From: Gammaproteobacteria bacterium
GTDB lineage: Bacteria > Pseudomonadota > Gammaproteobacteria > JBPCXB01
Direction of reading: 5' to 3'
Assembly: GCA_051008935.1 (NCBI GenBank)
Contig: JBPCXB010000110.1
Coordinates: 6,560-70,559 of the forward strand
Length of the DNA stretch: 64,000 nucleotides
Positions 2,467-59,337 of this stretch are shown here, piece by piece (positions within the stretch are counted from its first letter, which is position 1; each line of letters begins with the position of its first letter). The position numbers were made by a program, and so were the translations under genes. The notes under the pieces are model-generated. The model was given only the letters and a program-made list of their open reading frames with translations, did no database searches and was not told the DNA's origin.

Positions 2467-3159
2467 ATGTTTGCCAAACTCAATCTAGATGCAGAGAGAA
2501 TTCTCGGCAGACTGTCGTGGTCTGTTTCTATCTATACCATCAGGTCTTGGGCCTTGCCCACCCTCTTCAGCTTGGGGGTGACATCTAGTCTATTTCTATT
2601 GATGATTGTGTTGATTGAGGCTGGCGATCAGCACAGAGAGATCTTTAAAGGCTATAAGATCAAAGATGTTGTCATGCCTCAGCGCGATATTGAAGTGGTG
2701 GATATTCCAGACCCCGAACCGCCGCCGGATCTTTTAAATCCCCCTGAAGTGCCTCAGCCGCAGAACGATGCAGATATCCAGCCAATCAACACCTCTTTTG
2801 TCAAGCCGGTTATTAATAATGCGGTATCTTTTACCGGGGCTGCCTTGGGTCAGAATTCGGAATTGATCCCCATTGTGCGCGTTAATCCGGTCTATCCGCA
2901 GCGTGCAGTCTCACGTGGTATTGAAGGCTGGGTGATGTTGGAATTTACCATTAATGGCGATGGACGCACCAAAGATATAAGCGTCATACGGCGTGAACCC
3001 AGTAGCATCTTTGATGGTGCGGCTATCAAAGCTATTTCCAAATGGCGCTATAGGCCCCGTATTATAGATGGGGAGCCACAAGAAGTAGAAGGGGTTCAGG
3101 TAAGACTGACTTTTGAGTTGGAAAAAGGGACAAATCAAAGCAGCCGTAATTTGTTTTAA
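2467..3159 (+). CDS. tonB: TonB energy transducer
   Basis: N-terminal TM, Pro-rich spacer (PDPEPPPDLLNPPEVPQPQ), and a TonB C-terminal domain (PVYPQRAVSRGIEGWVMLEFTINGDG...WRYRP). Confidence 0.75.
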   Translation: MFAKLNLDAERILGRLSWSVSIYTIRSWALPTLFSLGVTSSLFLLMIVLIEAGDQHREIFKGYKIKDVVMPQRDIEVVDIPDPEPPPDLLNPPEVPQPQNDADIQPINTSFVKPVINNAVSFTGAALGQNSELIPIVRVNPVYPQRAVSRGIEGWVMLEFTINGDGRTKDISVIRREPSSIFDGAAIKAISKWRYRPRIIDGEPQEVEGVQVRLTFELEKGTNQSSRNLF

Positions 3160-3257
3160 TCGGTTTCTGAAGGGGCTTGCAGAGCGTCCCGAGATCTTGC
3201 TATGATCTAGAAGTATAGATGGCAGGTATCGGGATAGTTGGAATTGGAGGTTTGGAA

Positions 3258-4853
3258 ATGTCACAAAATACCTTGCTCAAGTTGCCTGTGTATGGATTAA
3301 CCGTTGTTCTCGGTTTCGGTTGGATTTCGGTGCATGCTATGACGCTACTTGCACCCACTTTTGCCCATGCGCAAGAGAGTAAAAAACCTGCCAAAAAGCG
3401 TGTGGTTAAAAAAGTGAAGGCGCTGAGCCTAGTCGCACAGGGCTATGTCATCAAGGTCACGCGTATTTTTGGCGAAGCGACAAAATTGGGGGAGCGGGCT
3501 AGCAACATCCTGGCAAGCGCTGAACAGGCCAAGAAAGATATCGTAGTCTGGCAAGAAGAAATTAAGGCCGGCGATCTCAGTACCAAAAAAGTCGCAAAAC
3601 TCCGAGCGCAGATTGAAGACGCAGAAAAACTGATAGCCAGTGCCCCTAAAACCAGCGAGGCACTCAACGCAGCTTCTTTGAAATTAGTAGGCAGAGCTTT
3701 GCCAGTGCTAGATACGATGCGGGCCAATATAGGCAAGTTGCAAAGTCAAGATCGGGCAGCCATGTGGAACTACTATGGCTATATTTATTCCCTTCAGGAA
3801 AACTACAGAGGAGCACGAAGGGCGTATGATAATCTGCTCAAAGAAAGCGAAGTGGCGCCGAACCTGCGCTTACAGGCTATGTTTTCCAGCGGTCAACTGT
3901 CTATGGTTCTGGAAGAGTATCAGAAAGGTGTCAAGCGTTTAGAGCAGTGGTATGCCTATGCGCGCGAATTGGAGAAGCCCATCCGCCCAGGAGACCATTT
4001 TCTCTTAGCGCAGGGCTACTATGCGCTCTCGGAATATGACAAAGTGATTGTGCGCATCAATGATGCTATCGAGTTGGCCTTGTCGAAAGCAATACCTCTT
4101 AGAGAGGGCTGGTTGCGCCTTTTGGTTGCTACTTATTTTGTGAAAGAAAATTTCACAGCTGCCCGCGAGCCTTTAGAGGCCTTAGTGCTTTTATTTCCCA
4201 AGCGAGAATACTGGATACAGCTGCAGGGTACTTACGGCGAACTGGAATTACGCGAGAACCAGCTGGCGATTCTGGATTTGGCGTGGCGGCAAGGTTTGCT
4301 AGAACGTTCGAGTGAGTTTGTGGCTTTATCTCAGCATTTGCAGTTGGCAGGCGATCCATTGCAGGCAGCTTTAGTCCTGACAGATGGCATCGATCAGGAG
4401 ATTGTGGAAGAGGATTTTGATAAGCTGTCGCTGCTTGCAAATTACTGGTTGCGTGCGCAGGAAATTAAAAAAGCCCTAGAGAGCTTTGAAAAGGCGAGCG
4501 AAGAGACCGATAGTGGAAAAATGCACTTTCGTATGGCGCAAATTCTGTTTCTTGAAAATCAGATAGAAGAGGCCTATAAGGCAGCAGAGATCGCTTATAA
4601 AAGGGGCGGCATCGATGATTTGGAAAGCGTGCGTATTCTGATGGCTCAGTCTTTATTGGAACTTGGCGAATACGAACAAGCCCTCGAGATTTTTAATGAT
4701 ATTGCCAGTGAAAGCGAGAAGGCGAAATCTCGGGTCAAAAGTTGGTTGAAATATGCTGCTACTCAGCAGGATGCCATTGATGCAATGAATGCGGCTATTG
4801 ATGTTTATAAAGCTCAAGAGCGGGAAATTCTGTCTAGTTTGGAGCTTCGGTAA
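3258..4853 (+). CDS. TPR-repeat periplasmic protein (TtpD-like accessory protein of the TonB2 system)
   Basis: Signal peptide MSQNTLLKLPVYGLTVVLGFGWISVHAMTLLAPTFAHA after a GGAGG RBS. Helical TPR-like repeats throughout. Position directly after tonB. Confidence 0.6.
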   Translation: MSQNTLLKLPVYGLTVVLGFGWISVHAMTLLAPTFAHAQESKKPAKKRVVKKVKALSLVAQGYVIKVTRIFGEATKLGERASNILASAEQAKKDIVVWQEEIKAGDLSTKKVAKLRAQIEDAEKLIASAPKTSEALNAASLKLVGRALPVLDTMRANIGKLQSQDRAAMWNYYGYIYSLQENYRGARRAYDNLLKESEVAPNLRLQAMFSSGQLSMVLEEYQKGVKRLEQWYAYARELEKPIRPGDHFLLAQGYYALSEYDKVIVRINDAIELALSKAIPLREGWLRLLVATYFVKENFTAAREPLEALVLLFPKREYWIQLQGTYGELELRENQLAILDLAWRQGLLERSSEFVALSQHLQLAGDPLQAALVLTDGIDQEIVEEDFDKLSLLANYWLRAQEIKKALESFEKASEETDSGKMHFRMAQILFLENQIEEAYKAAEIAYKRGGIDDLESVRILMAQSLLELGEYEQALEIFNDIASESEKAKSRVKSWLKYAATQQDAIDAMNAAIDVYKAQEREILSSLELR

Positions 4854-4856
4854 AGA

Positions 4857-5489
4857 CTAGCGCACCGGGCGGGTATAGCTGCAGAAGCGGATGCTGGCTT
4901 CACCTGCCGCTGTTGTTGTACCGGCTCTTTCATGTTGCAGAATCCAGTCTGTTTTTAGCTTGAAATCTGGTAAGTACGTGTTGCCCGAGACCGTTTGATC
5001 GATCCAGGTGATATAGAGATTTTCGGCTTGAGCCACCGTCTGTTCGTAGATCGTTGCTCCCCCTATTACCATCAAATCGCGCTTGCCTTCGGCAAGAGAC
5101 TGGGCTTTGTTCAATCCGGTTTCCAGAGCAGCATCCAGCTGGTTGAAAAGGTACAGGCAGGGTGCATCCTGCGCTTGAGCTAGTGCCAGCTTGTCAGCAT
5201 CGTTGTGATAAATTGGCACATCGGTTACCAGATGCTGTTTGAGTTCAGTCGGTTGTTTGGAACTAACGACTAAGTTGATGCGTTGATGCAAGGGGGCTCC
5301 GATACTGGAAAAAGTGTTCTGGCCCATGAGTACCACTTTTCCAAGTGTCATGTCGCGGAAGTACCTTAAATCTTCTGGAATGTGCCAAGGCATTTTGTTG
5401 TCCGCCCCAATGATCCATCTGTCGGCATGGTGGCTCTTAGCGGCGGCGACGATGAGCGATATTTTTTTCTTTGCCTGCACGCTAACCAT
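4857..5489 (-). CDS. folA: dihydrofolate reductase, with a C-terminal extension
   Basis: ISLIVAAAKS...RWIIGADNKMPWHIPEDLRYFRDMTLGKVVLMGQNTFSSIG matches the DHFR fold motifs. Adjacent to thyA. Confidence 0.8.
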   Translation of the reverse strand: MVSVQAKKKISLIVAAAKSHHADRWIIGADNKMPWHIPEDLRYFRDMTLGKVVLMGQNTFSSIGAPLHQRINLVVSSKQPTELKQHLVTDVPIYHNDADKLALAQAQDAPCLYLFNQLDAALETGLNKAQSLAEGKRDLMVIGGATIYEQTVAQAENLYITWIDQTVSGNTYLPDFKLKTDWILQHERAGTTTAAGEASIRFCSYTRPVR

Positions 5490-5514
5490 CAGATGTGTCG
5501 TTAGGGGTGATTTA

Positions 5515-6330
5515 TCAGACTGCGACCGGGGCAGCGATGTGAGGGGCAGGCTGATAGCCCTCTAGCTTCAGGTGCTCATATTCAAGCGATAGCAGTTGCT
5601 TTAGGCGGTTCTGCTGATTGTTTGCAGGTGCTAAGATCGATAAGCGTGGCAAATCCCTCGGGTTACGCTGCAACTGTTCCCGAGCTTGATCGAGATGGTT
5701 GAGGTACAGATGGCAGTCGCCTATGGTGTGAATGAATTCGCCGACGTCTAGCTTGCAGCTGTATGCAATCATGTGTGTTAATAGAGCGTAGCTGGCGATA
5801 TTAAAGGGTACGCCCAAAAACAAATCGGCGCTTCGTTGGTAGAGCTGGCAGGACAGTTTATTGTCAGAGATATAGAATTGCGCCATCAAATGGCAGGGCG
5901 GCAAGGCCATTTCATTGATGGATTCAGGGTTCCAAGCGCTAAGGATGTGCCTTCGCGAATAGGGTTGCTCTACCAATCCTTGGAGCAGGTTGGCAATCTG
6001 GTCGATTGATTTTTCAGGTTGCTGAGACCATTTTCGCCACTGAAAACCGTATACAGGGCCCAATTCGCCTTGAGCGTCTGCCCATTCATCCCATATCGTC
6101 ACACCGTGTTTCTGCAACCACCGGACATTGGTTTCTCCGCGCAAGAACCACAGCAACTCGTATGCCACTGATCGGAAGTGGATTTTTTTAGTCGTAACAA
6201 GGGGGAAGCCTTGCTGCAAATCGTACCTGCATTGCGCACCGAACAGACCCATTGTGCCTATTCCAGTGCGATCAACTCGGCGTTCGCCGTGGTTCAGAAC
6301 ATTCTCGACCAGATCTAGATATTGGCGCAT
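5515..6330 (-). CDS. thyA: thymidylate synthase. The start is taken at MRQYLDL, not the upstream ATG of the ORF track.
   Basis: [26 protein letters not shown]...[12 protein letters not shown] (active-site Cys). Confidence 0.9.
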
Positions 6331-6352
6331 GGAACCTGCTCTTTGCCCAGAT

Positions 6353-7180
6353 TTAGCGGTAGAAACGCTTGATTGCCCTATCCCAGTGCAACAGCAGACT
6401 AGAGCGCATGATATAAACGAATAATCCGACTCCTGCAATTAGAACAGGGAGTGTCAGCAATTGGCCGCGCGTGACCCAGCCCCACAGATCAAAGCCTATG
6501 TGAGTGTCTGGGGTACGGACGAACTCGATACTAATACGGAAGATTCCGTAGCCGACCAGAAAGAGAGCGGCTAATAGCCCGTCGGGCTGATTTTTTCTGT
6601 CCCGGAGCGCCAGCCAATTCAGAACAAAAAACAGCACCAGCCCTTCCAAGACAGCTTCATAGAGCTGTGAGGGGTGTCGGAGCAGTTTTTCAGGGTCAGT
6701 TGCAAAGATCACACCCCAGGGCCCATCGGTTGGTCGGCCCCAGAGTTCTGCATTGATAAAGTTCGCAATACGCATGCAAAAAATGACCAGAGGTGCAGAC
6801 AGGGCGGCTAGATCCATAGCTTGGAGCAAGTTTTTTTGATAGTGTCTGCAACACAGCCAGATGGTGATCAGTCCGCCACATAAAGCGCCGTGGAAAGAGA
6901 GCCCGCCTTCCCACAGGAAGAAAATATCTAGAGGGTTTTGCCAATAGTAAGCAGCATTGTAGAACAATATATACCCAAGCCGTGCTCCGAGCAGTGCGCC
7001 TACAAAGATGTATAGTAGAAAAGTTTCTACCAGCTCGTCGTTCCAGCTAGGCCACTTGCGCGCTACCCGCATCGCTGTGATCCAAGCCATTAACACGCCA
7101 GTAAATGCACAGATGCCATACCAGTGCACAGACAAGGGCCCTAGAGACAGGGCGACTGGATCAATATAAGGCAGGTGCAT
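6353..7180 (-). CDS. lgt: prolipoprotein diacylglyceryl transferase
   Basis: [19 protein letters not shown]...[12 protein letters not shown]...HPSQLYEA. Conserved lgt-thyA pairing. Confidence 0.9.
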
Positions 7181-7979
7181 AGGCGGGTCCTATCAGGTAT
7201 ATAGAGATAATCAACAAGTACCCAGCAAATAGACGCTTCAGCAATACAGGTGGCAGCTTTTTTGCAGCCCGAGCACCTACCCAGGCACTGGGCACGCTGG
7301 TCAGCACGATGGCCAGCACAGCAGGCCAGTAAATATAGCCAGTGCTGAAAGGCTGGTCGTACGATGGGTCCGTAAGAAGAGCATAGGTCAGCGTGGCGGC
7401 AAAAGCAATGGGTACAGTGCATGCGGCTGAAGTGGCAATGGCCTGATGAATGGAGCGCCCAGCCCAACTGAGAAAAGGAACTGTAATTGAGCCGCCACCT
7501 ACACCGAAAATACTGGAAGCAACGCCTATTGTGCAGCCAATAGGGAGTAGACGCGGGCCGGCATAGCGCATGACCTGCTCCTCTTTGATTCGATGGAGGC
7601 TCATTTGCAGGGCTGTCAGAATTGCAAACACGCCGATGGCGATACTCAGAGTTTTCCCGTCCAACTGGCCAGCAATCAATGCCCCTAACACGGCGCCCAC
7701 AAGAAGCCCCGGTACCAACCATTGGACATCCCGCCAGTCGATAGGGCTCTGAATGATATGTTGGCGTGCGGATGCGATTGAGGTAAAACAGATGGTCGCC
7801 AAAGAGGATGCAATGGCCACATGACTAACTCGGTCGGGGTGGAAGCCCGTTGGGTCAAAGGAAAATACGAAAATGAGCAGGGGTACGATTACCAGCCCAC
7901 CGCCAATTCCAAATAGGCCCGCCAGCAACCCGGCTACTGTACCTGTCAATAAGTAGAGCAGACTGATCAAAGAAAGCAT
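7161..7979 (-). CDS. TauE/SafE family (DUF81) sulfite/anion exporter. Its 3' end overlaps lgt by 20 bp.
   Basis: Two internal repeats with G-rich TM motifs (GLLAGLFGIGGGLVIVPLL ... IFGVGGGSITVPFL). Confidence 0.75.
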   Translation of the reverse strand: MLSLISLLYLLTGTVAGLLAGLFGIGGGLVIVPLLIFVFSFDPTGFHPDRVSHVAIASSLATICFTSIASARQHIIQSPIDWRDVQWLVPGLLVGAVLGALIAGQLDGKTLSIAIGVFAILTALQMSLHRIKEEQVMRYAGPRLLPIGCTIGVASSIFGVGGGSITVPFLSWAGRSIHQAIATSAACTVPIAFAATLTYALLTDPSYDQPFSTGYIYWPAVLAIVLTSVPSAWVGARAAKKLPPVLLKRLFAGYLLIISIYLIGPAYAPALY

Positions 7980-8039
7980 GATCTGCCGTAGTGCTGGGAG
8001 TTTCTAAACAAAATTTTAAGTGGAATCCGTATTTTTTAT

Positions 8040-8995
8040 TACTAAACGTTGCCTGAGACAAGCTCAGGCAACGTAGGACTCTAGACAGCCTTAAACACAA
8101 ATTCTTACTACACCACTACGCACTTAAACACACCCCTCTCTGACACTACTACGCGCCCTGAGCCTGACGAAGGGCGCCTTTAGAAAAAGAGTAAAAATCA
8201 CAAGCTCAGGCAACGTTGTGCACTAGACAGCCTTAAACACAAATTCCATCTACCCTACCACGCGCCCTAAGATAGCCGCTGGCATTTTTTACTTTTTTAT
8301 TTCTAAAGGCTGGACTAGTGCTCTTTACTAAAGGTTGCCTGAAACAAGTTCAGGCAACGTTGTGTACTAGATAGACTTAAACACAAATTCCCTCTACTCC
8401 ACTACGCACTTAAACACACCCCTCTCTGACACTACTACGCGCCCTGAGCCTGACGAAGGGCGCCTTTAGAGAAAGAGTACCAGTTGCCTTTAGAAAAAGA
8501 GTAAAAATCACAGGTTCAGGCAACGTTGTGCACTAGACAGCCTTAAACACAAATTCCATCTACCCTACCACGCGCCCTGAGATAGCCGCTGGCATTTTTT
8601 ACTTTTTTATTTCTAAAGGTTGCCTGAAACAAGTTCAGGCAACGTGGAACTCTAGAAAGTCTTGAACACAAATTCTTATTACACCACTACGCACTCTAAA
8701 CACAATTCCCTCTACTCCACTACGCACTTAAACACACCCCTCTCTGACACCACTACGCGCCCTGAGCCTGACGAAGGGCGCCTTTAGAGAAAGAGTACTA
8801 GTCCGCCTGACTTTTTTTATTACTAAAGGTTGCCTGAAACAAGTTCAGGCAACGTTGTGTACTAGACAGACTTAAACACAATCCTATCTACACTACCACG
8901 CGCCCTGAGCTTGACGAAGGGCGCCTTTAGAAAAAGAGTAAAAATGCCTTTAGAGAAAGAGTACTAGTATAGAATAGCCGCAACCAGAGTTCTCA
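8040..8995. repeat. Non-coding complex tandem macro-repeat array. About 3.5 copies of a 285-300 bp unit, each carrying two conserved hairpins.
   Basis: Direct reading. Recurrent GTTGCCTGAAACAAGTTCAGGCAAC (9-bp stem) at about 8048, 8345, 8628 and 8829, with half copies near 8200 and 8510. Recurrent GCGCCCTGAGCCTGACGAAGGGCGC hairpins. Recurrent CACTACGCAC and TTAAACACAAATTCC motifs. No ORF. Confidence 0.85.
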
Positions 8996-9035
8996 ACGGC
9001 TAACGCCAGTTGAGAGGTACTAGGAGATTTTTTTT

Positions 9036-10154
9036 ATGTTGTGTGCAACTATCTATCAGGCTAGTTATGGTAAGAAGTTTTTTGGGGGTACGCTGATCGT
9101 TGCTGGTATGCTACTTCTGCAGGGTTGCTCGCAAGAGCCAGAGCCGCTTTTGGCGGAAGTTTCCTGCCAAGATGTAGGCGATATTGAGGTAGTCTGTGGT
9201 TTTCACCGGCCGGAAGATCTTGAGCTAACGCCGGATGGTAGTTACCTGATTGTGAGTGAGATGAACGGTACCATTGATGCGACTTTCGACCCGGGTCGGC
9301 TGTCGTTTTATGATCTTCGCACGCGCAAGCGAATCACTGCTGACTTGGAGCTAGATGCGACTCCAGGCTGGGGAGACCCAAACTGTCAGTCGCCCGAGCA
9401 CTTGGATTTTTCGCCGCATGGTATTTATCTGCAGACACAGACCCAACACCCCTACCCAGTGCTGGCGGTAGTCAGTCACTACCCTCGTGAAGCAATAGAA
9501 ATTTTCAGCCTCCAGCACCAAGAAGACGGTCGGCCTTACTTGGTCTGGCGTGGTTGTCTGATCCCACCTGGTATGCCATTTCTGAATGATGTGGCAATTA
9601 CCACTGACGGCACGTTTTATTTCACACATATGTTTGATCGGGATGCTTGGGGTTTTGGGCTGATTGCTCGACTGGTGTTGTCATGGGATACGGGCTTTGT
9701 GTGGTCTTGGTCACCAGCAACAGGCTACAACAAGGTGCCGGGTTCAGATGGCAGCTTTCCCAACGGTATCAGCCTGGACCCCGATGCGGGTATCTTGCTA
9801 GTGAACTATTACACAGATAATCTGATGCAGACTTTTAGCTTAGAGACAGGAAACCGCCTCGGGGCATTTGAGATTCAGTTCCCGGACAATGTGTCTTATG
9901 TTGATGGAGTAGCCTATGTAGCTTCGCACCAGATCGAGTTGGGTGGTTCGGATGCCTGCGCTCACCTGACCAGTACGTGCCCGCTTCCTTACAGCATCTA
10001 CCGGATAGACCCTGTCACTCTGGAAGGTGAGCAGATACTTTATGGTGACGGCCCGCCGTTTGGCTTGGCAACGGTGGCTATTCCTGTGGAGAGGCGATTA
10101 TGGATGGGTTCTTTTACCGGTGATCGTATTGCAAGCGCGCCTTTGGCGCGTTGA
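9036..10154 (+). CDS. Lipoprotein, likely six-bladed beta-propeller (SMP-30/gluconolactonase/LRE-like)
   Basis: Lipobox LLLQGC. DG/NG-rich blade-like segments (PNGISLDPDAG, TDGTFYFTH). Confidence 0.45.
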   Translation: MLCATIYQASYGKKFFGGTLIVAGMLLLQGCSQEPEPLLAEVSCQDVGDIEVVCGFHRPEDLELTPDGSYLIVSEMNGTIDATFDPGRLSFYDLRTRKRITADLELDATPGWGDPNCQSPEHLDFSPHGIYLQTQTQHPYPVLAVVSHYPREAIEIFSLQHQEDGRPYLVWRGCLIPPGMPFLNDVAITTDGTFYFTHMFDRDAWGFGLIARLVLSWDTGFVWSWSPATGYNKVPGSDGSFPNGISLDPDAGILLVNYYTDNLMQTFSLETGNRLGAFEIQFPDNVSYVDGVAYVASHQIELGGSDACAHLTSTCPLPYSIYRIDPVTLEGEQILYGDGPPFGLATVAIPVERRLWMGSFTGDRIASAPLAR

Positions 10155-24779: not shown

Positions 24780-26153
24780 TCACTGTAGATTCAGGCTCTG
24801 TGCATGCTGCTCAAGTGCTGCCTGTACGCGATCGAATAAATCGTGGATCTGCTGTTCGGTAATGATCAGAGGTGGGCAGAAGGCGATACTGTCAACCAGA
24901 TTGCGCACGATGACGCCTTCATTGATGCATAGCTGGCGTAAAGCAGCTCCTTGGCTGCCGACCGGCTGGAAGGGCTCTTTGGTCTTTCGATCTGCTACTA
25001 TTTCAATCGCACCAATGAGGCCTACCCCCCGGACTTCGCCGATTTGTGGGAATTTAGCAAGCTGTTGGATCCTGCTCTGGAAGATAGGCTCTAGTACTGC
25101 AACCCGATCCATGATCCCGTCTTCTGTCAGAATACGCAAATTTTCCAGTGCAACAGCGCAGGCCAAGGGGTGTGCCGCTCCAGTGATGCCGTTGCCAAAT
25201 ATGCCAAATTTCTGGCTGTTATCAGCTGCTTTTTGATAGACCTTATCGTTAATCAGCACAGCAGCCATGGGCATATAAGACGAAGTCAATTGCTTAGACA
25301 GCACCAATATATCCGGTCGGATGTTGTATTTATCGCAGCCGAATCGGGCACCAGTCCGGCCAAATCCGCAGATTACCTCGTCAGCAATCAATAGCATGTT
25401 GTGCGCGTTGCATACTTCAGCTATCTTCTGCCAATAGCCTGTCGGAGGAGGAATCACTCCGCCAACCCCCATGACCGGCTCGCCTATAAAAGCAGCCACT
25501 TTATCGGTGCCACCCTGTTCTTGAATAGTCGCTTCCAGCTCAGCAGCGCACCTGGTGCTGAACGCTTCTTCGCTCTCGTTGTCATGCCCATAACGCCAGT
25601 AGTGTGGGCAAGAGGTAAAGCCGATGTTCTCGATTGGCATGCCAAATCCCTGGTGCGCAAAGGGCAGTCCAGTCAAACTACCAGAGCCTATAGTGGAGCC
25701 GTGGTACGCTTTTTCTCGGGAGATGATCACTTGTTTATCGGGCTTTCCGCAGGCGTGATGGTAGTAGCGAGCCAACTTGATGGCGGTGTCGTTGGCTTCG
25801 GATCCTGAGTTGGTGAAATGCGCTCTTGACATATCGGCAGGCGCCATGTCGATCAGTGTTTGCGCTAAAAGCGCGGCACTTTCGTGACTGGAGCCTCCAA
25901 AACTATGGTAGTAAGGTAGTTTTTGTAGCTGCTTGTAGGCTGCTTCCGCGATGCGTTTTTCGCTGAATCCTACTGCGACCGACCAGAGCCCAGCCATAGC
26001 TTCGATGTATTGATTGCCCGATTCATCTTCTACATAGATATTGTTGCCTTTGACAATTGTTAAAGGCCCAGTTTGTTCCATGGCGCGGGCGTTAACGTAA
26101 TGCAACAGGCTGTAGTTTGCATGTAGGCTGGATGCTGAGTGGTTGTGGTGCAT
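24780..26153 (-). CDS. Class-III PLP-dependent aminotransferase (omega-amino acid:pyruvate type)
   Basis: AT-III fold motifs (LIADEVICGFGRTG, HGSTIGSG). Confidence 0.8.
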   Translation of the reverse strand: MHHNHSASSLHANYSLLHYVNARAMEQTGPLTIVKGNNIYVEDESGNQYIEAMAGLWSVAVGFSEKRIAEAAYKQLQKLPYYHSFGGSSHESAALLAQTLIDMAPADMSRAHFTNSGSEANDTAIKLARYYHHACGKPDKQVIISREKAYHGSTIGSGSLTGLPFAHQGFGMPIENIGFTSCPHYWRYGHDNESEEAFSTRCAAELEATIQEQGGTDKVAAFIGEPVMGVGGVIPPPTGYWQKIAEVCNAHNMLLIADEVICGFGRTGARFGCDKYNIRPDILVLSKQLTSSYMPMAAVLINDKVYQKAADNSQKFGIFGNGITGAAHPLACAVALENLRILTEDGIMDRVAVLEPIFQSRIQQLAKFPQIGEVRGVGLIGAIEIVADRKTKEPFQPVGSQGAALRQLCINEGVIVRNLVDSIAFCPPLIITEQQIHDLFDRVQAALEQHAQSLNLQ

Positions 26154-26182: not shown

Positions 26183-26305
26183 CTCAAGGCTGTTTGATTT
26201 TTGCTCAGGGCTGTTTTCTTTCAGCTCAAGGCTGTTTGCTCTTTGCTCAGGGCTGTACTCTTTTGCTCAGGGCTGTTTCTTTTTTGCTCAGGGCTGTTTG
26301 CCTTC
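26183..26305. repeat. Six tandem copies of a ~20-bp unit (GCTCAGGGCTGTTTnnTTTT) in the aminotransferase promoter region
   Basis: Direct reading of 26183-26305: ctcaaggctgtttgattttt / gctcagggctgttttctttca / gctcaaggctgtttgctcttt / gctcagggctgtactctttt / gctcagggctgtttctttttt / gctcagggctgtttgcct. Confidence 0.8.
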
Positions 26306-26530
26306 TGCCAGTTTTAGGGCAGTTTCTATGCGTTGTTTCATTTCATCCAGAAGCTCGAACGTGTGACGTTGCGACAGCACAGTTTTCCGCTCTCGTCCAA
26401 GTTTGATAATCGCTTCTTCTAGGAATTGCAGTTGTTCCATAAGCGGTTCTTTAGGTCTATTCATGGGTTGGGCCGGCTCCAAGCTGGAATCAGAAAGAGG
26501 GGACTGTCCATTGTATGACACAACGAACAA
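26288..26530 (-). CDS. Small hypothetical coiled-coil protein (possibly starting at the internal MNRPKEP)
   Basis: 80-aa ORF (58 aa from the internal Met), charged helical. No known motif. Sits between the repeat tract and the divergent cysQ. Confidence 0.25.
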   Translation of the reverse strand: MFVVSYNGQSPLSDSSLEPAQPMNRPKEPLMEQLQFLEEAIIKLGRERKTVLSQRHTFELLDEMKQRIETALKLAEGKQP

Positions 26531-26629: not shown

Positions 26630-27484
26630 ATGATGCAGTTGGTTCAACGTCCGTTTCAGAAAGAGGATATCTTGCCTCTGGCCGATAGCGCGCGAGGAAT
26701 AATACGTGCAGCAGCACGCGAAGTGATGGGGGTTTACCAGCAATATCTGGATGATCTTGATTTTGAGATCCAGAGCAAACAGGATGGTTCACCCTTGACG
26801 ATAGCAGATCGCATTTCGCATCAGGTTTTGTGTGATGGTTTGCGGGCCCTGTCACCTGTTTTGCCGATTGTGTCTGAGGAAGGCAAGGATAGCAAAGAGG
26901 CCCCCGTAGGAGAACATGCTGCTTATTGGCTCCTTGATCCTTTGGATGGTACCAAGGAATTTCTGGCTAGAAATGGCGAATTTACCGTTAATATCGCCTT
27001 GATGCAGGGCAGTAAAACGGTTTGGGGTGCGGTTTCAGTTCCAGCACAGGATTGTGTATATGAAGGTGGGCCTGGGCTAGGATGCCGTTTATGGCACCAG
27101 ATGTCCTGTCAATCTATCCAGACCGTGTCGGCGCCGAGGCGTCAATGTCGGGTATTGTTTAGCCGTTCGCATTCACAGAATGATCAGAATGCGCAGCTGG
27201 TCCAGCAACTACGGGCGCATTTTGACCAAACCGAACAGCTAATACGTGGCAGTTCCCTTAAGCTCTGTAGCGTTGCGAGCGGTGAAGCGGACCTGTATCC
27301 TCGCCTTGGGCCTATACGCCAGTGGGATATAGCCGCCGGTCATGCCGTTCTGGTTGGTGCCGGTGGCACAATCATGCATATGGATGGAACAGAAATAACC
27401 TATGGCGGAGACACCATGGTACCCATCAGCCCATTCATTGCAGTTGGCGATGCCAGTATCGACTGGCTGGCTATACTGAACTGA
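26630..27484 (+). CDS. cysQ: 3'(2'),5'-bisphosphate nucleotidase
   Basis: WLLDPLDGTKEFL, GEFTVNIAL, WDIAAGHAV. Co-linear with E. coli CysQ. Confidence 0.8.
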   Translation: MMQLVQRPFQKEDILPLADSARGIIRAAAREVMGVYQQYLDDLDFEIQSKQDGSPLTIADRISHQVLCDGLRALSPVLPIVSEEGKDSKEAPVGEHAAYWLLDPLDGTKEFLARNGEFTVNIALMQGSKTVWGAVSVPAQDCVYEGGPGLGCRLWHQMSCQSIQTVSAPRRQCRVLFSRSHSQNDQNAQLVQQLRAHFDQTEQLIRGSSLKLCSVASGEADLYPRLGPIRQWDIAAGHAVLVGAGGTIMHMDGTEITYGGDTMVPISPFIAVGDASIDWLAILN

Positions 27485-45968: not shown

Positions 45969-46859
45969 ATGAAATGGGTAGGCACCGGCTGGTTTAAAGG
46001 CAAGCAGCCGTTGATAGCACAGTTGCAGTTTGGCTGGGATCGTTTTAAGGAGCTGCTGCAACCTTTGATTACTAACTTAGCGCGAACGGCCAAGTTGGGG
46101 TGGCATCGCTTTAAGGGGTTGCTGCAACCCTTGATCGCCAACTTAACGCGAACGGCCAAGTTGGGGTGGCATCGCTTTAAGGAGCTGCTGCAACGAATCC
46201 CTCCAATTTGGTGGCCTGTAGTGATTGCTTCTGCCATTTTGCATATGGCAGCTGTTAGTTTGTTGGCCGGCGCGTCCGTGCGGACCAATCAGGTTTGGGA
46301 GCCCTTTTCTCCCTACCTAGAGACTATAGATGTACGCATTCTGGCACCAATCCCAGTGGCTGATACAGCGGTTGAGCAGTCAACCACGCCTGTTGCTGAC
46401 GCGGCTGCCTCTGAACCGCCCGCATCGTCTCTGGAGGCTTCGCAATCACAATTACCAGTGCGCACTGAATCAGCAGAATCTTTGATTGAACCTGACATCG
46501 TCGCCGTTGCGCCAGATACTCCCGCTGTGCCGAGCAATCAGCCGGATGGAGAATCTGAGTTACGTCTGCAGGTGGCCGCCGATATCTCCAGAGTCATTAA
46601 AAGCCACTGGAAAGTGCCTTTTAGCGCCGTACGCGGGCTGCGCGCACAAGTAGAAGTACAGCTGAATCGGGAGGGTAAACTGGTGCAGATTGTCTTTGTG
46701 CGCCCTAGCGGCTCTGAGAGCTTTGACGCTTCTATTCTGCGCTCTTTGCGCTTGATCAATAGCTTTCCGGCAGTGGCATTACTTTCAGATGTAAGCTATC
46801 ACAATGACTTTCAGACTATTGTGTTGGTGTTTGATTCAGATGAACGTTTGCGTCTCTGA
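45969..46859 (+). CDS. tolA: Cell-envelope integrity protein TolA, with an atypical 78-aa repeat-containing N-terminal segment before the TM anchor
   Basis: TM helix IWWPVVIASAILHMAAVSLLAGA resembling the E. coli TolA anchor. C-terminal TolA domain (VQLNREGKLVQIVFVRPSGSESFDASIL). Position after tolR. Confidence 0.75.
   Translation: MKWVGTGWFKGKQPLIAQLQFGWDRFKELLQPLITNLARTAKLGWHRFKGLLQPLIANLTRTAKLGWHRFKELLQRIPPIWWPVVIASAILHMAAVSLLAGASVRTNQVWEPFSPYLETIDVRILAPIPVADTAVEQSTTPVADAAASEPPASSLEASQSQLPVRTESAESLIEPDIVAVAPDTPAVPSNQPDGESELRLQVAADISRVIKSHWKVPFSAVRGLRAQVEVQLNREGKLVQIVFVRPSGSESFDASILRSLRLINSFPAVALLSDVSYHNDFQTIVLVFDSDERLRL
46031..46195 (+). repeat. 66-bp (22-aa) in-frame tandem repeat x2.5 at the tolA 5' end (LGWHRFKELLQPLIANLTRTAK units)
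   Basis: Direct repeat visible in the DNA (ggtggcatcgctttaagg...gcgaacggccaagttgg). Confidence 0.85.
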
Positions 46860-50088: not shown

Positions 50089-50164
50089 GGGTCGTTAGCT
50101 CAGCTGGTAGAGCAGTCGGCTTTTAACCGATCGGTCGCTGGTTCGAATCCAGCACGACCCACCA
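50089..50164 (+). tRNA. lysT: tRNA-Lys (anticodon UUU), with encoded CCA
   Basis: GGGTCGTTAGCTCAGCTGGTAGAGCAGTCGGCTTTTAACCGATCGGTCGCTGGTTCGAATCCAGCACGACCCACCA. Near-identical to E. coli tRNA-Lys. Same position after ybgF/cpoB as in E. coli. Confidence 0.92.
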
Positions 50165-53643: not shown

Positions 53644-56600
53644 ATGATTGCAAAAAATTATAGGCTTAGGTTCCTAGCAGTAACCTGTGTGTCGATACTT
53701 GCCAGCTGGCTGCTCGTTGGTCAGGCGGTAGCACAGAATGCGCCTACTATCAGTTCTATCGAAGATAAGACGGTTCGAGTGGGTCAGTATTACGCTATTG
53801 ATTTGACATCCTATGTTACCGAAATGGATGGGGATGCGGTGTCTTACGACTTAAGCGTCGGCCCTTCTGGGGTTTTGGGTTCGTTTGACGACTTTGCTGC
53901 GAATGTTCTAGGAGATTCCAGTTCGTATTTTGTTGAAAATACGGGCTTGCTGATTGTGAACCTCGGCAGCAATGGTACCGCTGGCTCTAGCGAATTGCAG
54001 TTTTCGGCCACTGATCTAGACGGAACAGCCACTGTTTCTTTCAACTTGATAGTCCAGCCGGAGTTCCTGGCGGATATTTCTAATATGCTGATTAGTTCAG
54101 GTTCGGGTTCACTAGATCTTGCAACATACACGACGGAAGATGACATAACATGGGACGCAACTGAGGTAGGTTCGACAACTCTTCCAACGGGATTTAGCTT
54201 GTCAGGTTCGACTCTTAGCTACTCTGGGTTGGCAGCTGGCAGTAACCACGATTTGGCAGTTACAGCGACCTTAACTCTTTCAGACACTGTCTATACCGAT
54301 ACGAGCGCTTTTCGCATTACCGTTGCATCTGCTACGGGCGTGTCATCCACCCTCATAGAGGATTTGGAAATATTGGAAGATGCGACAACCAACCTGCAGC
54401 TTTCTGATTACTTTTCATCTGCTGACACCCTTAGCTATACAGTGGTCGAGCAGGGCACATCGAGCCTGCCTGCAGGCATAACCTTGACAGGCTCTGTGCT
54501 GGAACTGTTGGTTGAATCGTTAGAGGTTGCTACTTCTTATAACTTGCAGGCGACTGCCAGTACTAGCACGGAGTCGGCCTCGCTAGATTTCACGGTAACC
54601 TTTGTACCTATCAATGATGCTCCCGAATTTGCAGGTCCTATCGCGCAACAGACGGTCGCATTGGGCAGCTCTGCTACATTAGATGTCAGCGGTTATTTTT
54701 CAGATGAAGAATCGGATCCATTGACCTTTGAGGCCACACAAGTAGGCGGCACGGCCTTGCCTTCTTGGATCACGCTGGCTGCATCTACGGGTATCTTTAC
54801 TTTTGCACCAAGCGCAAGTGACAATATCAGCACCGAGGTGTTCAGTATTGAGGTTATAGCCAGCGATTTTGGGTTGGACGCTGCCGCTAGCTTTAATCTT
54901 GCAGTTTCGCTTCCACCAGTACTTAGCACTTTGATTCCTGAGAAGAGTGTGGGTGTAGGTGAAACGCTGGTGTTAGAACTGTCGGGTTTCTTTACCAGTA
55001 GCCAAACTTTGAGTTATTCTTTCTCCAGTACGCCTTCGGCATCTTGGATGAGCATCGATGCGACGACTGGTGCGATGGAGTTTGCGCCTACCAGCTCTTC
55101 GGACATTGCTGACTATACAGTTACCGCAACTGCAACTACGCCTGCCTCGCTGTCGGCCAGTGATACCTTTGTGCTGAGCGTTCTTTCCACTCAGTCCCCA
55201 GAAGTTGCTAGTGATGCTTTGACTGCGCATAGTGTCGCTGTCACGGCCATCAGCACTATTGATGCTTCCGCCATTTTTAGCGATCCAGAAGGACTCGTAT
55301 TAACTTATGCAACTGCGGTATCGGGCCAAGATTTTTCATCTTGGATTAGCATAGACTCCAGCTCCGGACTTATTACGCTGGCTCCCACACAGGCAGCGCT
55401 AGCTGGTAATAGCTACACGCTGACAGTCACTGCTACCAATGCTTCTAATTTGTCGACAGATCATGACATTACCCTTAGTGTTTCTGCCAACACGGCTCCT
55501 ACAGTCGCTACGACTCTTGCGGATGTCAGTTTATCAGGCACTTCGCAGGCTTATATTATTAATGGGTTCAGTAGTTTCTTTGCAGATGCTGAAGAAGCTA
55601 CTAGAGGAGCTGACGGCGAGCTGGATGTTGCGGTAGAACTGACCGCTCTTAATGACGCTGGGGATACAGATGACGAGGTTTTGGATATTGCCGTCATCTC
55701 GTGGTTTACGGTTGCGGGAGACGTCATCACCGTCGCTCCCAGCAACAATCTGGTGGGTACGTATCGCATAAAGCTGACAGCAGAAGATTCCGGAGGCTTG
55801 ACAGGGGAGCAGGCTTTTGACCTTGAAATAACCTTCGCTAATGTGGCGCCTGCGGTCGTAGCAAATAATGATGTCTCTAACTCGACGTACACGATAATTG
55901 TTGGAGCTTCACAAGAAGTAGATATATCTGGCGTCTTTTCGGATGCGGACGGCGACGCCTTGACCTTGACGGCAGATCAGAGCGATGGCACGGCGTTGCC
56001 TGCTTGGGTTGTGTTTGATGCTGCTGAACTGACGGTGACAGCCGAGCCAACCAGCTCGGCAGATATTGGCGACATTACCGTACGGCTTACTGCTAGTGAT
56101 GGAACTCTTTCTATTAGTACCACTTTTGATATCACGGTATTAGCTGCGAATATGCAGCCTACGCTTGTATCTGCGCTCAGTGATCAACAGGTAGACGAAG
56201 ATTCTGTGCTCTCTACAACCTCTGTGAAGGTCAATTTCTCTGACCCAGAGGGTATTTCCCTTAATTTGTCTGCTGCATTGTCTGATGGCAATGCGCTGCC
56301 GAGCTTTATCACCTTTACAGCATCGACAGGTGTGTTCAGATTTGCGCCTACTCTGACCAGCGAAGCTGACACTTACAGTATTGAGGTGACTGCTTCGGAT
56401 GGTGCGTTGAGTGTCAGCGATACCTTTGATCTGACAGTGACTGCAGTCGATGACACTCCGATTGTTGCAGTTGTTATTGCCGATCAGTCAGCCACCGAAG
56501 ATGCAACAGCAGAGACTCTTGATGTGTCCTCCAACTTTAGCGATGAAGAGACCAGCACTCTGACGCTGTCGGCGGCATTAGCTAATGGCAATGCTCTGCC

Positions 56601-59337
56601 GAGCTTTATCACCTTTACAGCATCGACAGGTATGTTCAGCTTTGCGCCCACCCTGAGCAGTCAGGCCGGTACTTACAGCATTGAAGTGACTGCTTCAGAT
56701 GGCGCGTTGAGTATCAGCGACACCTTTGATCTGACCGTGTCTGCAGTCAATGACAGTCCAGTTTTCAGTGGGCCTATTCCCATGCAGGTTGTTGAAGCTG
56801 GCACGACGGGAACTTTGAGTGTAACGCAATATTTCCAAGATGAAGAATCACAATCTCTGACCTTTTCGACGAGTGTCGGAGGTGTTGGGTCTGGAGACCC
56901 TGCGTTTCCAAGCTTCATTACGTTCACCGCCGCAACTGGTGCATTCAGCTTTTCGCCTACGCAAGCTGAACGATCAATGGCGTTTACCGTTACGGTCCAG
57001 GCGACTGATGAAGGCAATAAAAGCGCGATGGGTACGTTTACGTTGACGGTAGGTGACGAAGATTCTCCTCCCGTTCTAGTTGGTGGTGGCATAGAGGATA
57101 CGGAGGCATTTGAAGACGCTGTTACCACTTTTGATATCGCTAGTAGCTTTACGGATCCCGCCGGCGACGCGCTGACTTTTACATCGACATTGGCTGATGG
57201 CGTTGCTCTGCCAGCTTTTGTCACTCTCTCGGGCTCTGAATTCACATTCGCACCTACTTTGAGCATTCAAGCTGGTATTTACAGTATTGAGGTGACTGCT
57301 TCAGACAATAGCAGCAGTGTCAGCGATATCTTTGATTTGATTGTGACACCAGTCAACGATGCCCCGATTGCGGCCGTCAGCGTCATGCCGGCTAATGGCA
57401 TACCGGATCAGGTATACACGGAAGATGATCCGGCCATCGTCATAGCGTTATCTGATTATTTCAGTGATGAAGAAGATAACGATAATCTCGCTTATGCGAT
57501 TGAACGTGTGGAATTAGATACAGTCACTGATCTTTATGTAGGTACCGGTGTGATACCGCCTTGGGCTGTTGTCGATAACACTGCCAATACTCTGACCATT
57601 GAGTTGTTGCTGAGCAATACTGGTGCTGCGACTGGTGAATTTCAGATTACGGCAACGGATTCAGGGGGTTTGGAAGCAGAAGATATCTTCAAGATTACGT
57701 TGGATGAACGTAACGACCCACCCAGCTTGCTTTTTGCGATTATTGACCAAGAAATTCCCGTAGATACTGAAACCGTTTTTTCGGTGGGTGGGTTTTTTGT
57801 TGATGAAGAATCTGACAGCTTGAGTTTCTCTGCAACCCTGGATGGTTCGTCCCTACCTGACTGGATCGATTTGGCAATTGGCGGGCGCTTTACATTCAAC
57901 CCGACGACTGCCAACGAGGGTACTTATACCATTAGCGTGACAGCTACAGACAGTACGCTAAGTGTCACGGATGAATTCGAATTGACTGTTCTGCCAGCCC
58001 CTGCACTTGCACAGGATGTGTGGGAAAGTACCTTAGGGCAGCAATTCAGCATGATCAATACCAGCGTAGCTGATTCGATTGGCGGCAGAATGTCGCGTAT
58101 TGGATCTGTAAAACGCGCAGATTCCAATACTGTAGCTCTCATGCTCTCTCAGTATGCTGGATCGGATCGTCAAGGCAATCTCCGGCAACTTCTGAATGGC
58201 AAAACCCTTGGCTATCAATTAGGGTCTTCCTACAGTTCTCAGGCAACAGGCACTGGCGCTAGTTCGATCTGGTTGACCAGTAATAGTAGGACATTGGAAC
58301 AGACAGGTGCTTCAAGCTGGGAGGCAGACCTCTCTGACATGGTTGTTGGTTTCGATACCCGAGTCGGTAGTTCGCTGGTGATTGGGCTGGTCTATGTCAA
58401 TTCTTCTGGTGATTATGCCGTTGCTGCAAGCGGCGGTTCAAACGCCTTTCAATACACCAATGATGTGACCAGTACGCATCCTTGGGTAGGCCTGTCGGCT
58501 GGTAACCTTAACCTGTGGGTTTCGGCAGGAGAAGGGGATGGCACGCTTGAAATAGATGATGGCAATTCTTCTGTGTTGACTACGGATGTAGCGCTCAGCT
58601 CGGTTCAGTTCGGTCTGGAGTTCTCGGTTGCCGAATGGCTAGCATTGAGTTTGACGAATTCCAGTAGCGATTTTTCATCAGAAGCGGTGGGTAATATTCA
58701 ACGAATGGAGTCCAGTCTGGATGAAATGCGGGTTGCGATTAATGCCAAATACAGCTTTAAGGTCGGAAGTAGTGTGTTAACTCCTAAGCTAATTATTGCT
58801 AGCCGTGATCAAAGCATCGGTGAATCTGACGGCGAGTTGAGTGATCCAGCCCATTCAGGCACAGAGATGGGTTTTGACATCGATCTTCGCACAGCATCAG
58901 GTTTGGGATTGGCATTAGGTAGCCGTTCATTTTCATCAGATACAGAAGGCTATGACGAAACAGGTAGTTTCTTTGCCCTGAGTTTTGATTTCGGCGTACC
59001 TAATCGCGGTTTTATCTTTGAACTGAAGCCATCGTATGGGCATACAGATAGCAGAAGCCAAGAGCTTGTAGATGGCTTTTACAAGCCTCAAGTTGATTCT
59101 TTGGGTCGCCAATCTAAGCTGTCGGCCGAAATTTCTTATCCCACAGCACTTGGCTCGGCTTGGCTGGTCAGCCCTTATGTCAGCTTTGATCGCAGTAGCG
59201 CCGACAGCCAGTCGAGGATTTCAGGTGTGCGCTTCGGCTTTACCCGTGCCATTGATCTGGCATTTTCGCACCGCGAACGCCAATCTCTCTTGGGAACTGA
59301 GCAATCTGTTGAATTGCAAGGACGTTTGAGCTTCTAA
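53644..59337 (+). CDS. Giant surface protein 2 (1897 aa): signal peptide, ~15 cadherin-like/CADG-type repeats, and a ~440-aa C-terminal predicted beta-barrel ending ...LQGRLSF, paralogous to protein 1
   Basis: Repeated ALPSFITFTASTG.F.FAPT...YSIEVTASDG.LS.SDTFDLTV.AVND.P units. C-terminal domain alignable with protein 1 (QDVWESTLGQQFSM... vs ASVWLQGSSYEIES...). Confidence 0.75.
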   Translation: MIAKNYRLRFLAVTCVSILASWLLVGQAVAQNAPTISSIEDKTVRVGQYYAIDLTSYVTEMDGDAVSYDLSVGPSGVLGSFDDFAANVLGDSSSYFVENTGLLIVNLGSNGTAGSSELQFSATDLDGTATVSFNLIVQPEFLADISNMLISSGSGSLDLATYTTEDDITWDATEVGSTTLPTGFSLSGSTLSYSGLAAGSNHDLAVTATLTLSDTVYTDTSAFRITVASATGVSSTLIEDLEILEDATTNLQLSDYFSSADTLSYTVVEQGTSSLPAGITLTGSVLELLVESLEVATSYNLQATASTSTESASLDFTVTFVPINDAPEFAGPIAQQTVALGSSATLDVSGYFSDEESDPLTFEATQVGGTALPSWITLAASTGIFTFAPSASDNISTEVFSIEVIASDFGLDAAASFNLAVSLPPVLSTLIPEKSVGVGETLVLELSGFFTSSQTLSYSFSSTPSASWMSIDATTGAMEFAPTSSSDIADYTVTATATTPASLSASDTFVLSVLSTQSPEVASDALTAHSVAVTAISTIDASAIFSDPEGLVLTYATAVSGQDFSSWISIDSSSGLITLAPTQAALAGNSYTLTVTATNASNLSTDHDITLSVSANTAPTVATTLADVSLSGTSQAYIINGFSSFFADAEEATRGADGELDVAVELTALNDAGDTDDEVLDIAVISWFTVAGDVITVAPSNNLVGTYRIKLTAEDSGGLTGEQAFDLEITFANVAPAVVANNDVSNSTYTIIVGASQEVDISGVFSDADGDALTLTADQSDGTALPAWVVFDAAELTVTAEPTSSADIGDITVRLTASDGTLSISTTFDITVLAANMQPTLVSALSDQQVDEDSVLSTTSVKVNFSDPEGISLNLSAALSDGNALPSFITFTASTGVFRFAPTLTSEADTYSIEVTASDGALSVSDTFDLTVTAVDDTPIVAVVIADQSATEDATAETLDVSSNFSDEETSTLTLSAALANGNALPSFITFTASTGMFSFAPTLSSQAGTYSIEVTASDGALSISDTFDLTVSAVNDSPVFSGPIPMQVVEAGTTGTLSVTQYFQDEESQSLTFSTSVGGVGSGDPAFPSFITFTAATGAFSFSPTQAERSMAFTVTVQATDEGNKSAMGTFTLTVGDEDSPPVLVGGGIEDTEAFEDAVTTFDIASSFTDPAGDALTFTSTLADGVALPAFVTLSGSEFTFAPTLSIQAGIYSIEVTASDNSSSVSDIFDLIVTPVNDAPIAAVSVMPANGIPDQVYTEDDPAIVIALSDYFSDEEDNDNLAYAIERVELDTVTDLYVGTGVIPPWAVVDNTANTLTIELLLSNTGAATGEFQITATDSGGLEAEDIFKITLDERNDPPSLLFAIIDQEIPVDTETVFSVGGFFVDEESDSLSFSATLDGSSLPDWIDLAIGGRFTFNPTTANEGTYTISVTATDSTLSVTDEFELTVLPAPALAQDVWESTLGQQFSMINTSVADSIGGRMSRIGSVKRADSNTVALMLSQYAGSDRQGNLRQLLNGKTLGYQLGSSYSSQATGTGASSIWLTSNSRTLEQTGASSWEADLSDMVVGFDTRVGSSLVIGLVYVNSSGDYAVAASGGSNAFQYTNDVTSTHPWVGLSAGNLNLWVSAGEGDGTLEIDDGNSSVLTTDVALSSVQFGLEFSVAEWLALSLTNSSSDFSSEAVGNIQRMESSLDEMRVAINAKYSFKVGSSVLTPKLIIASRDQSIGESDGELSDPAHSGTEMGFDIDLRTASGLGLALGSRSFSSDTEGYDETGSFFALSFDFGVPNRGFIFELKPSYGHTDSRSQELVDGFYKPQVDSLGRQSKLSAEISYPTALGSAWLVSPYVSFDRSSADSQSRISGVRFGFTRAIDLAFSHRERQSLLGTEQSVELQGRLSF

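Follow-up and report, generated by a model that had tools for sequence, protein, structure and literature searches.

BrickBuilt of Porphyromonas gingivalis, which is a MITE (miniature inverted-repeat transposable element), contains an internal minisatellite and is intergenic, non-coding, and species-restricted, with partial forms and lengths up to ~1 kb (PMC4596501). Its tandem repeat, of 23 nt and variable copy number, lies between a non-identical "leader" and "tail" that carry small inverted-repeat ends (PMC4596501). The elements Correia/NEMIS, ERIC/IRU, RUP, and YPAL are 100–200 bp long, non-coding, and located between genes near promoters, and their terminal inverted repeats fold into a long stem (PMC2229807). 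These traits of both groups, with a repeat of 33 nt instead of 23 nt and with long terminal complementarity clear in one unit only, recur in an array found in 64,000 nucleotides of DNA from a Gammaproteobacteria bacterium (assembly GCA_051008935.1, contig JBPCXB010000110.1, positions 6,560 to 70,559, forward strand; this whole stretch is called the window). The array proper occupies window positions 8026–8968, 943 bp of non-coding DNA in the divergent intergenic region between tauE and a putative lipoprotein gene. Its architecture is closest to that of BrickBuilt and to that of folded bacterial MITEs such as Correia and ERIC. With about an even chance of being correct, it can be read as a foldback element resembling a MITE and containing an internal minisatellite, one that was inserted here, amplified in place, and is probably devoid of a dedicated function.

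Alignment and motif mapping divide the array into six cores in a single orientation, four complete and two truncated (Table 1). A complete element is ~140–210 bp long and has a fixed order: a T-rich arm, hairpin 1, a G-poor spacer, hairpin 2, and an A-rich arm. Hairpin 1, GTTGCCTGA(A/G)ACAAG(T/C)TCAGGCAAC, occurs four times (starting at 8048, 8334, 8619, and 8829) and has a perfect 10-bp stem, extended to 12 bp in copy 1, and a 5-nt loop; in complete cores it is followed by a conserved segment of 17–18 nt containing CTAG. Hairpin 2, GCGCCCTGAGC(C/T)TGACGAAGGGCGC, is also present four times (8153, 8439, 8757, and 8900) with a 7-bp GC stem and one loop change in unit 4. Both hairpin patterns have no occurrence in dinucleotide-preserving shuffles. 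The array has six copies of the block GCCTTTAGARAAAGAGTA, and no shuffle reaches seven matches to it; CTTAAACACAAATTC has four exact copies and one with a single mismatch, and the six matches of its short pattern, with three mismatches allowed, are equalled in 2 of 100 shuffles. These four motifs have no copy elsewhere in the 64 kb, where the sole other matches carry three mismatches.

The minisatellite between the hairpins is a 33-nt sub-repeat with the head CTTAAACACA and the tail CYACYACGC, whose copies along the six cores number 2, 1, 2, 1, 3, and 1 (2, 2, 3, and 1 in the complete cores); Tandem Repeats Finder reports it in unit 3 with a period of 33 and 2.4 copies. The T-rich arms, to the left of the complete cores, end in CTAAAGG, and the A-rich arms, to their right, begin with CCTTTAG; each kind of arm is the reverse complement of the other, imperfectly matched. 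The truncated cores (8200–8283 and 8510–8593) begin in the hairpin-1 loop and end after the 5' arm of hairpin 2, followed by ATAGCCGCTGGC. The flanking order is always left arm to right arm around complete cores and always right arm to left arm around truncated ones. A complete and a truncated core together form a super-unit; the two super-units, 8026–8311 (286 bp) and 8312–8618 (307 bp), are 83% identical overall and 96–97% identical in their truncated-core part, and two further complete units of ~210 and ~165 bp come after them. Core 2 is 90% identical to core 1. The truncated cores, with a mutual identity of 96%, and the 137-nt repeat family D4, with an identity of 97%, point to recent local duplication.

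The original prediction, made from the letters of the sequence, had described two hairpins per unit, repeated blocks, and T-rich tracts, all of which are present far above chance; its CA-rich blocks correspond to the 33-nt minisatellite. The 7-bp stem that it gave for hairpin 2 is the one observed, while the 9-bp stem given for hairpin 1 is too short by one pair, or by three in copy 1. Its 3.5 copies of a 285–300 bp unit are acceptable as a coarse view of what is actually a layout of two super-units and two complete units, and the array limits that it set at 8040–8995 have to be moved to those given above, positions 8969–8995 being unique flank outside the array. The absence of an open reading frame (ORF) and the AT-richness that it had noted both agree with the data: no stop-free stretch in any of the six frames is longer than 47 codons, homologous copies within the array fall in differing frames, and the GC content is 43–46% against 50–56% in the flanks.

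In all four complete units, CTAAAG...CTTTAG closes both hairpins, and the left arm with hairpin 1 is ~70% complementary to hairpin 2 with the right arm (repeat-search pair I5), so that each complete unit appears to be a foldback whose terminal inverted repeats are long but degenerate. The double arms of unit 2 pair over ~50 nt with a score of 40, compared to 14.0 ± 2.5 in shuffles, and are also paired in the predicted folds. The fold predicted for unit 2 consists of a closing stem, the two hairpins, and a G-poor linker left unpaired; its energy is -61.5 kcal/mol, and z is -5.4 for the plus strand compared to -3.9 for the minus strand; for the whole array, z is -9.2 and -7.1, respectively.

The composition of the array is foreign to the rest of the window. 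Its GC skew ranges from -0.19 to -0.30 (G 17%, C 27%); CTAG reaches a density of 9.5/kb compared to 2.6/kb in the rest of the window, GATC is absent compared to 5.3/kb, and all eight copies of TTAAACACA in the window belong to the array. No related repeat outside 8026–8968 was detected when the whole window was searched for repeats or by nhmmer using a unit profile, and nhmmer with the unit profile and with single modules, run on the window and on the loci of relatives, gave no match beyond the array.

The comparison with related loci describes the site itself. Beyond the source, the best homologues of TauE and of the lipoprotein are only 54% and 50% identical, respectively, indicating that no close relative is present in the databases. 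Three related loci were compared (L004, L006, and L005, the last being a 6-kb contig). L004 and L006 keep the gene order luciferase-like, lipoprotein, and divergent tauE-lgt-thyA-folA, with 109 nt between the divergent genes and without the array; L005 keeps tauE-lgt-thyA-folA, and 90 nt separate its tauE from a divergent gene that the contig end interrupts. No copy of the array was found in the relatives' loci that were fetched. The unique flanks of the array in the window measure 46 and 67 nt; since they sum to 113 nt, in comparison to 90–109 nt of intergenic DNA in the relatives, the array behaves like DNA inserted into an otherwise ordinary divergent promoter region.

On this basis, a single element would have entered the ~110-bp divergent promoter region between tauE and the lipoprotein gene. 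It would then have multiplied and become rearranged at this site, through unequal recombination, or slippage during replication, among its palindromes and sub-repeats, with four complete and two truncated copies as the outcome. The units are non-coding and, at 141–209 bp, lie below the ~500 bp that bounds a MITE, and the array is probably a new instance of a small non-autonomous foldback repeat, not a proven MITE. Its anatomy, its restriction to this locus within the window, its absence from the relatives, and the lack of coding, promoter, terminator, and Rfam signals are observed; transposition as its origin, amplification in place, and lack of function are the parts of this reading that we infer. 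Of the three candidates named in the original prediction, namely tandem small RNAs, a REP-like or protein-binding array, and the remnant of a mobile or repeat element, the last fits best on account of the foldback arms and of the insertion relative to the related loci.

Several observations weigh against insertion of a mobile element. Dispersal is the hallmark of a mobile element, and the other 63 kb of the window hold no further copy; this absence is weakly informative because a density like that of BrickBuilt corresponds to ~1 copy per 123 kb. No transposase was found among the window genes examined, and the array is not bordered on its outer sides by a clean target-site duplication or by a direct repeat. 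Beyond the 6–8 nt CTAAAG/CTTTAG core, the complementarity of the arms of units 1, 3, and 4 is within the range of shuffles. The nearest relatives are distant (50–54% protein identity), and the absence of the array from them is therefore a loose guide to the age of the insertion. Counted in favour of the main reading, as a mark of recent local duplication, is the 8-mer ATAGCCGC, which is located at the end of both truncated cores (8272 and 8582) and appears again at 8974, 5 nt into the right flank. This suggests co-duplicated flank sequence or an 8-bp target duplication, and only suggests it because six further copies of the 8-mer are scattered over both strands of the window.

Differences from the described families are also evident. 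BrickBuilt is dispersed over 19 loci in 2.35 Mb (~1 per 123 kb), whereas the array is known from one locus, and promoter activity has been experimentally shown for BrickBuilt (PMC4596501), whereas no promoter-like sites were found in the array. The two have no sequence similarity, and the array repeats whole elements in tandem, not the minisatellite only. Correia/NEMIS, ERIC/IRU, RUP, and YPAL are dispersed in tens to hundreds of copies that have defined target duplications, in contrast to the array, which has no clear target duplication; Correia and ERIC carry IHF sites, whereas no IHF consensus is present in the array. REPs are defined by a conserved GTAG located immediately 5' of an imperfect palindrome. 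In the array, CTAC is found before hairpin 2 (on the minus strand, GTAG after it), which is the opposite polarity, and hairpin 1 has neither. REP/BIME/REPIN sequences resemble the array as short GC-rich extragenic palindromes in mosaic clusters between genes (PMC3116915, PMC3337134), but REPs occur as inverted pairs at hundreds of loci with a RAYT gene, while the array consists of six same-orientation cores and no RAYT is encoded in the window. The term REP-like, proposed earlier, disagrees with the array in the defining features tested, given the wrong CTAC/GTAG polarity, the lack of inverted pairs, and the absence of other copies in 63 kb.

Among the searches for known families, Rfam gave no family at its gathering score, the sub-threshold hits being eukaryotic with E of at least 0.05 (the best a microRNA family), and blastn in distant mode found no match of the whole array to plasmids and phages. 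In viral contigs, GTTGCCTGA-N7-TCAGGCAAC had three unrelated matches, evidently from one phage sequence family and without shared flanks, and two other array motifs had none. Further copies were also sought through spurious ORFs: two ORFs of the array had no record by exact look-up, a word-indexed protein search gave no candidate, and two matches obtained by exhaustive phmmer were rejected as true repeat proteins that resemble KNxSGYL by chance. The array has no sequence similarity to anything searched, and a match to a known repeat family, which the original prediction had named as a refuting outcome, was not obtained in the Rfam, plasmid, or phage searches. The scans of genomes and metagenomes used a 6-nt spacing in hairpin 1, the true one being 7, and could not match the array copies; their matches, one Actinoplanes site and 65 metagenome contigs, are all unrelated. 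In a few metagenome samples, dozens of contigs carry an unrelated and highly abundant foldback repeat, GTGTGGAGAATGTTGCCTGACTGCAGTCAGGCAACATTCTCCACACAGTGCACACATCTT, often at contig ends (loci L009, L010, L014, L016, L025, L027, and others, on JGI20166J26741, Ga0209628, and Ga0209629 contigs); it is included among those 65 contigs, together with scattered matches of other kinds to the palindrome.

Other classes were considered for the array and rejected. Type I toxin-antitoxin repeats (LDR, SIB) do not apply, as no conserved small ORFs with start codons are present. By eye, a sigma-54 promoter in GGCAACGTTGTGCA has a spacing off by one and a LexA site has an unfit spacing. An oriC/datA region is dismissed because GATC and a perfect DnaA box are both lacking and genes linked to origins are absent. 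In integrons, the attC core sites, R''/R' RYYYAAC...GTTRRRY, bound each imperfect palindrome; an attC or CALIN array is rejected given the unfit hairpin ends, GTTGCCT/AGGCAAC and GCGCCCT/AGGGCGC, and the lack of cassette ORFs. A CRISPR array is not compatible with sequences between hairpins that are themselves repeated and with irregular spacings of 142, 144, 166, 119, and 210.

A purely local origin, in which native intergenic DNA, perhaps an ancestral hairpin leader, was tandemly duplicated, rearranged at its palindromes by slippage and recombination, and never was mobile, is possible at a clearly lower probability than insertion. All copies are in one orientation at one locus, the super-units measure 286 and 307 bp, and neighbouring copies share variants, such as the C/T at the edge of the hairpin-1 loop, which is common to core 1 and truncated core 1 and to core 3 and truncated core 2. 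Sequence similar to the flanks is also found within the array, namely ATAGCCGC and arm 4, which is similar to arm 1 when TCCG from the left flank is added to it. However, the unique flanks already account for the full intergenic length of the relatives and leave no obvious native seed, the composition and the CTAG and GATC content are sharply unlike the rest of the window, and the inverted-repeat arms are of the type expected of inserted foldback elements.

A more doubtful explanation regards the array as tandem structured regulatory RNAs of the plus strand, in which each unit would form a three-way junction of closing stem, hairpin 1, and hairpin 2. It is improbable that such RNAs act as a sponge, as a regulator of the anti-Shine-Dalgarno type, or as Rho-loading (rut-like) insulators in the lipoprotein leader. 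In its most developed form, a chain of ~170-nt three-way-junction RNAs of a class unknown to Rfam, born from foldbacks, would run toward the lipoprotein gene, an arrangement with little likelihood; equally unlikely, each would expose a near-G-free single strand of 60–95 nt with the 33-nt repeats and UCCC/CCCCUCUCU motifs. If this were true, the array could serve as a new regulator or sponge in multiple copies, by pairing with Shine-Dalgarno regions rich in G or by sequestering an RNA-binding protein, or else as a Rho-loading insulator.

LhrC1-5 and RsaE are multicopy small RNAs (sRNAs) with C-rich single strands, and the architecture of the array, with almost G-free spacers and significantly stable predicted folds (as for the one unit described above), resembles them. 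LhrC1-5 of Listeria, PrrF1/2, and Qrr1-5 are reiterated sRNA genes, each with its own promoter and a U-tract terminator, and are conserved across related species. They share with the array units of 100–200 nt, two hairpins, and a C-rich single-stranded stretch, but their promoter, U-tract terminator, and conservation are not seen in the array. Between 7900 and 9100, no sigma-70-like promoter and no intrinsic terminator were called on either strand, while ~1 of each is obtained in shuffles; hairpin 2 is followed by CTTTAGAAAA and not by a T-run (in RNA terms, by CUUUAGAAAA and not by a U-tract), and T-rich sequence precedes hairpin 1 and does not come after it. No Rfam match exists and the array is not conserved in relatives. 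One of 24 pairs, the tenth of hairpin 1, shows a compensatory change (A-T to G-C in copy 1, A-U to G-C in the RNA), but the four copies are near-identical and too alike for covariation to be tested in earnest, and palindromes can gain "compensatory" changes via templated repair at the DNA level. The earlier suggestion of a family of tandem small RNAs is not supported by the sequence signals, having no promoter, terminator, or Rfam match and a single compensatory pair on its side.

Slightly less likely again is a DNA-level protein-binding array, in which a DNA-binding protein would be titrated or positioned by the sub-repeats or by the 10-bp palindromes, as happens at datA, iterons, or centromere-like sites. 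Eight of the ten same-orientation sub-repeats start with TTAAACACA, which agrees with the DnaA-box consensus TTWTNCACA at 8 of 9 positions and is confined to the array; the 33-nt period is close to three helical turns and the arms are AT-rich with A-tracts. However, the eight sites are copies of one duplicated unit and not independent events. The T4 position of the DnaA box is conserved, and it is there that TTAAACACA deviates. Furthermore, GATC is absent, unlike in gammaproteobacterial origins, no rep, par, or dnaA gene is nearby, the IHF consensus is lacking in the array, and the array is absent from the relatives.

The assembly itself can be compared with two Logan short-read contigs from other runs, L002 and L003, which carry an identical tauE. 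L002 matches window 2731–8142 with one mismatch, thus covering the first 117 nt of the array (8026–8142), and stops exactly where the next 31-mer (8113–8143) gains a second predecessor from units 2 and 3; because of this ambiguity of predecessors, the break point is that expected if several unit variants are truly present in the reads. L003 (SRR33949960; window 5992–8024) ends 1–2 bases before the left border of the array, which may be due to low coverage or to a polymorphic boundary (an empty-site allele). Independent contigs for the right end of the array, sought via the lipoprotein and luciferase-like proteins, are not on record, and the inner architecture and copy number are known from the metagenome-assembled genome (MAG) alone. 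An assembly artefact, that is, a wrong copy number or order of units through collapsed, expanded, or chimeric repeats, is the least probable of these explanations: the source is a MAG, both independent contigs stop at or inside the array, and internal 137-nt repeats with 97% identity are hard to resolve, but the first 117 nt are independently reproduced, the L002 break fits at least two unit variants in the reads, the copies differ at many positions, permitting assembly, and an artefact could alter the copy number but could not create the element.

Table 1. Features of the array and of its immediate surroundings (positions in the window).
Feature	Positions	Strand	Details
tauE/safE-family membrane protein gene, left neighbour	7161-7979	-	transcribed away from array; Pfam PF01925 1.9e-57
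Unique left flank, 46 nt	7980-8025		remaining native tauE upstream region; unrepeated; present in Logan L002 and L003
Complete unit 1	8026-8198	+	core 8048-8177; T-rich arm 8026-8047; hairpin 1 8048-8072; two 33-nt sub-repeats 8090-8152; hairpin 2 8153-8177; A-rich arm Ra 8177-8198
Truncated core 1	8200-8283	+	hairpin-1 loop and 3' arm only, 8200-8214; one sub-repeat; hairpin-2 5' arm only, then ATAGCCGCTGGC 8262-8283
Unit 2 double left arm	8284-8333	+	La GGCATTTTTTACTTTTTTATTTCTAAAGG then Lb CTGGACTAGTGCTCTTTACTAAAGG; complementary to 8463-8508
Complete unit 2 core	8334-8463	+	hairpin 1 8334-8358; two sub-repeats; hairpin 2 8439-8463
Unit 2 double right arm	8463-8508	+	Rb CCTTTAGAGAAAGAGTACCAGT then Ra CCTTTAGAAAAAGAGTAAAAAT
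Truncated core 2	8510-8593	+	architecture as truncated core 1
Complete unit 3	8594-8802	+	core 8619-8781; La 8594-8618; hairpin 1 8619-8643; three sub-repeats 8661-8756; hairpin 2 8757-8781; arm Rb 8781-8802
Complete unit 4	8803-8968	+	core 8829-8924; T-rich arm 8803-8828, resembling arm 1 plus last bases of left flank; hairpin 1 8829-8853; one sub-repeat; hairpin 2 8900-8924; Ra 8924-8945; Rb 8947-8968
Unique right flank, 67 nt	8969-9035	+	ATAGCCGC 8974-8981; AGGAG before ATG
372-aa putative lipoprotein (beta-propeller/SGL-like), right neighbour	9036-10154	+	transcribed away from array

The flanking genes agree with those named at the outset: tauE is identified by its Pfam domain, and the right-hand protein (locus tag ACR2PW_03570) has a signal peptide and a lipobox-like LLQGC motif. 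The surroundings, previously described as a compact housekeeping region, indeed encode exbB/exbD/tonB, folA, thyA, lgt, nnr, tsaE, amiC, and mutL. The right flank contains a TAGAAT -10-like hexamer (8970–8975) abutting the last array arm and a 7-bp inverted repeat, TCTCAAC/GTTGAGA (8991–9015), just upstream of the AGGAG ribosome-binding site.

Other repeats are found elsewhere in the window. At 26183–26308, a 21-bp unit with the consensus CTCAGGGCTGTTTGCTTTTTG is repeated six times in tandem (76% matches) in a 475-nt divergent intergenic region between genes for a class-III aminotransferase (24780–26153, minus strand) and an inositol-monophosphatase-family protein (26630–27484, plus strand); a link to the array via the shared GCCCTGAGC (reverse complement, hairpin 2) was judged probably coincidental. 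A 66-bp tandem repeat (46027–46194, 2.5 copies, 87% matches) is part of an ORF at 45969–46859 on the plus strand. Very large repetitive surface-protein coding sequence occupies 53644–59337 and 60494–64000, including a 1897-aa ORF with He_PIG and bacterial Ig-like domains and a tandem repeat within coding sequence whose unit is 297 bp (99 aa), with at least 11.8 copies up to the window end, beyond which it continues; a single tRNA gene (50089–50161; Rfam tRNA, 73.7 bits) is just upstream of these genes.

With regard to the neighbouring genes, the array sets the divergent promoters ~950 bp apart, places ~1 kb between the two genes, and probably alters the control DNA upstream of each. For tauE, the best hexamer resembling a -10, TAAAAT at ~8013–8018 on the minus strand, was recognised by eye and not called by the scan; with this -10, DNA of the element would now be at the would-be -35 position. 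If the array is transcribed rightward, the RNA would have stable hairpins separated by C-rich, G-poor stretches, the composition expected of Rho loading sites. Any such effects on the neighbours are likely by-products. In addition, the array breaks short-read assemblies at this locus.

Taken at face value, the array represents an unclassified repeat family in an uncultured gammaproteobacterial lineage without close sequenced relatives, a small foldback element with an internal minisatellite that would have grown to ~1 kb within promoter DNA. Its importance would be greater if the units were expressed as discrete RNAs or were dispersed in the genome; if they were dispersed, they would constitute a new MITE family, perhaps with an identifiable transposase; otherwise, it would be an ordinary example of lineage-specific intergenic repeat DNA.

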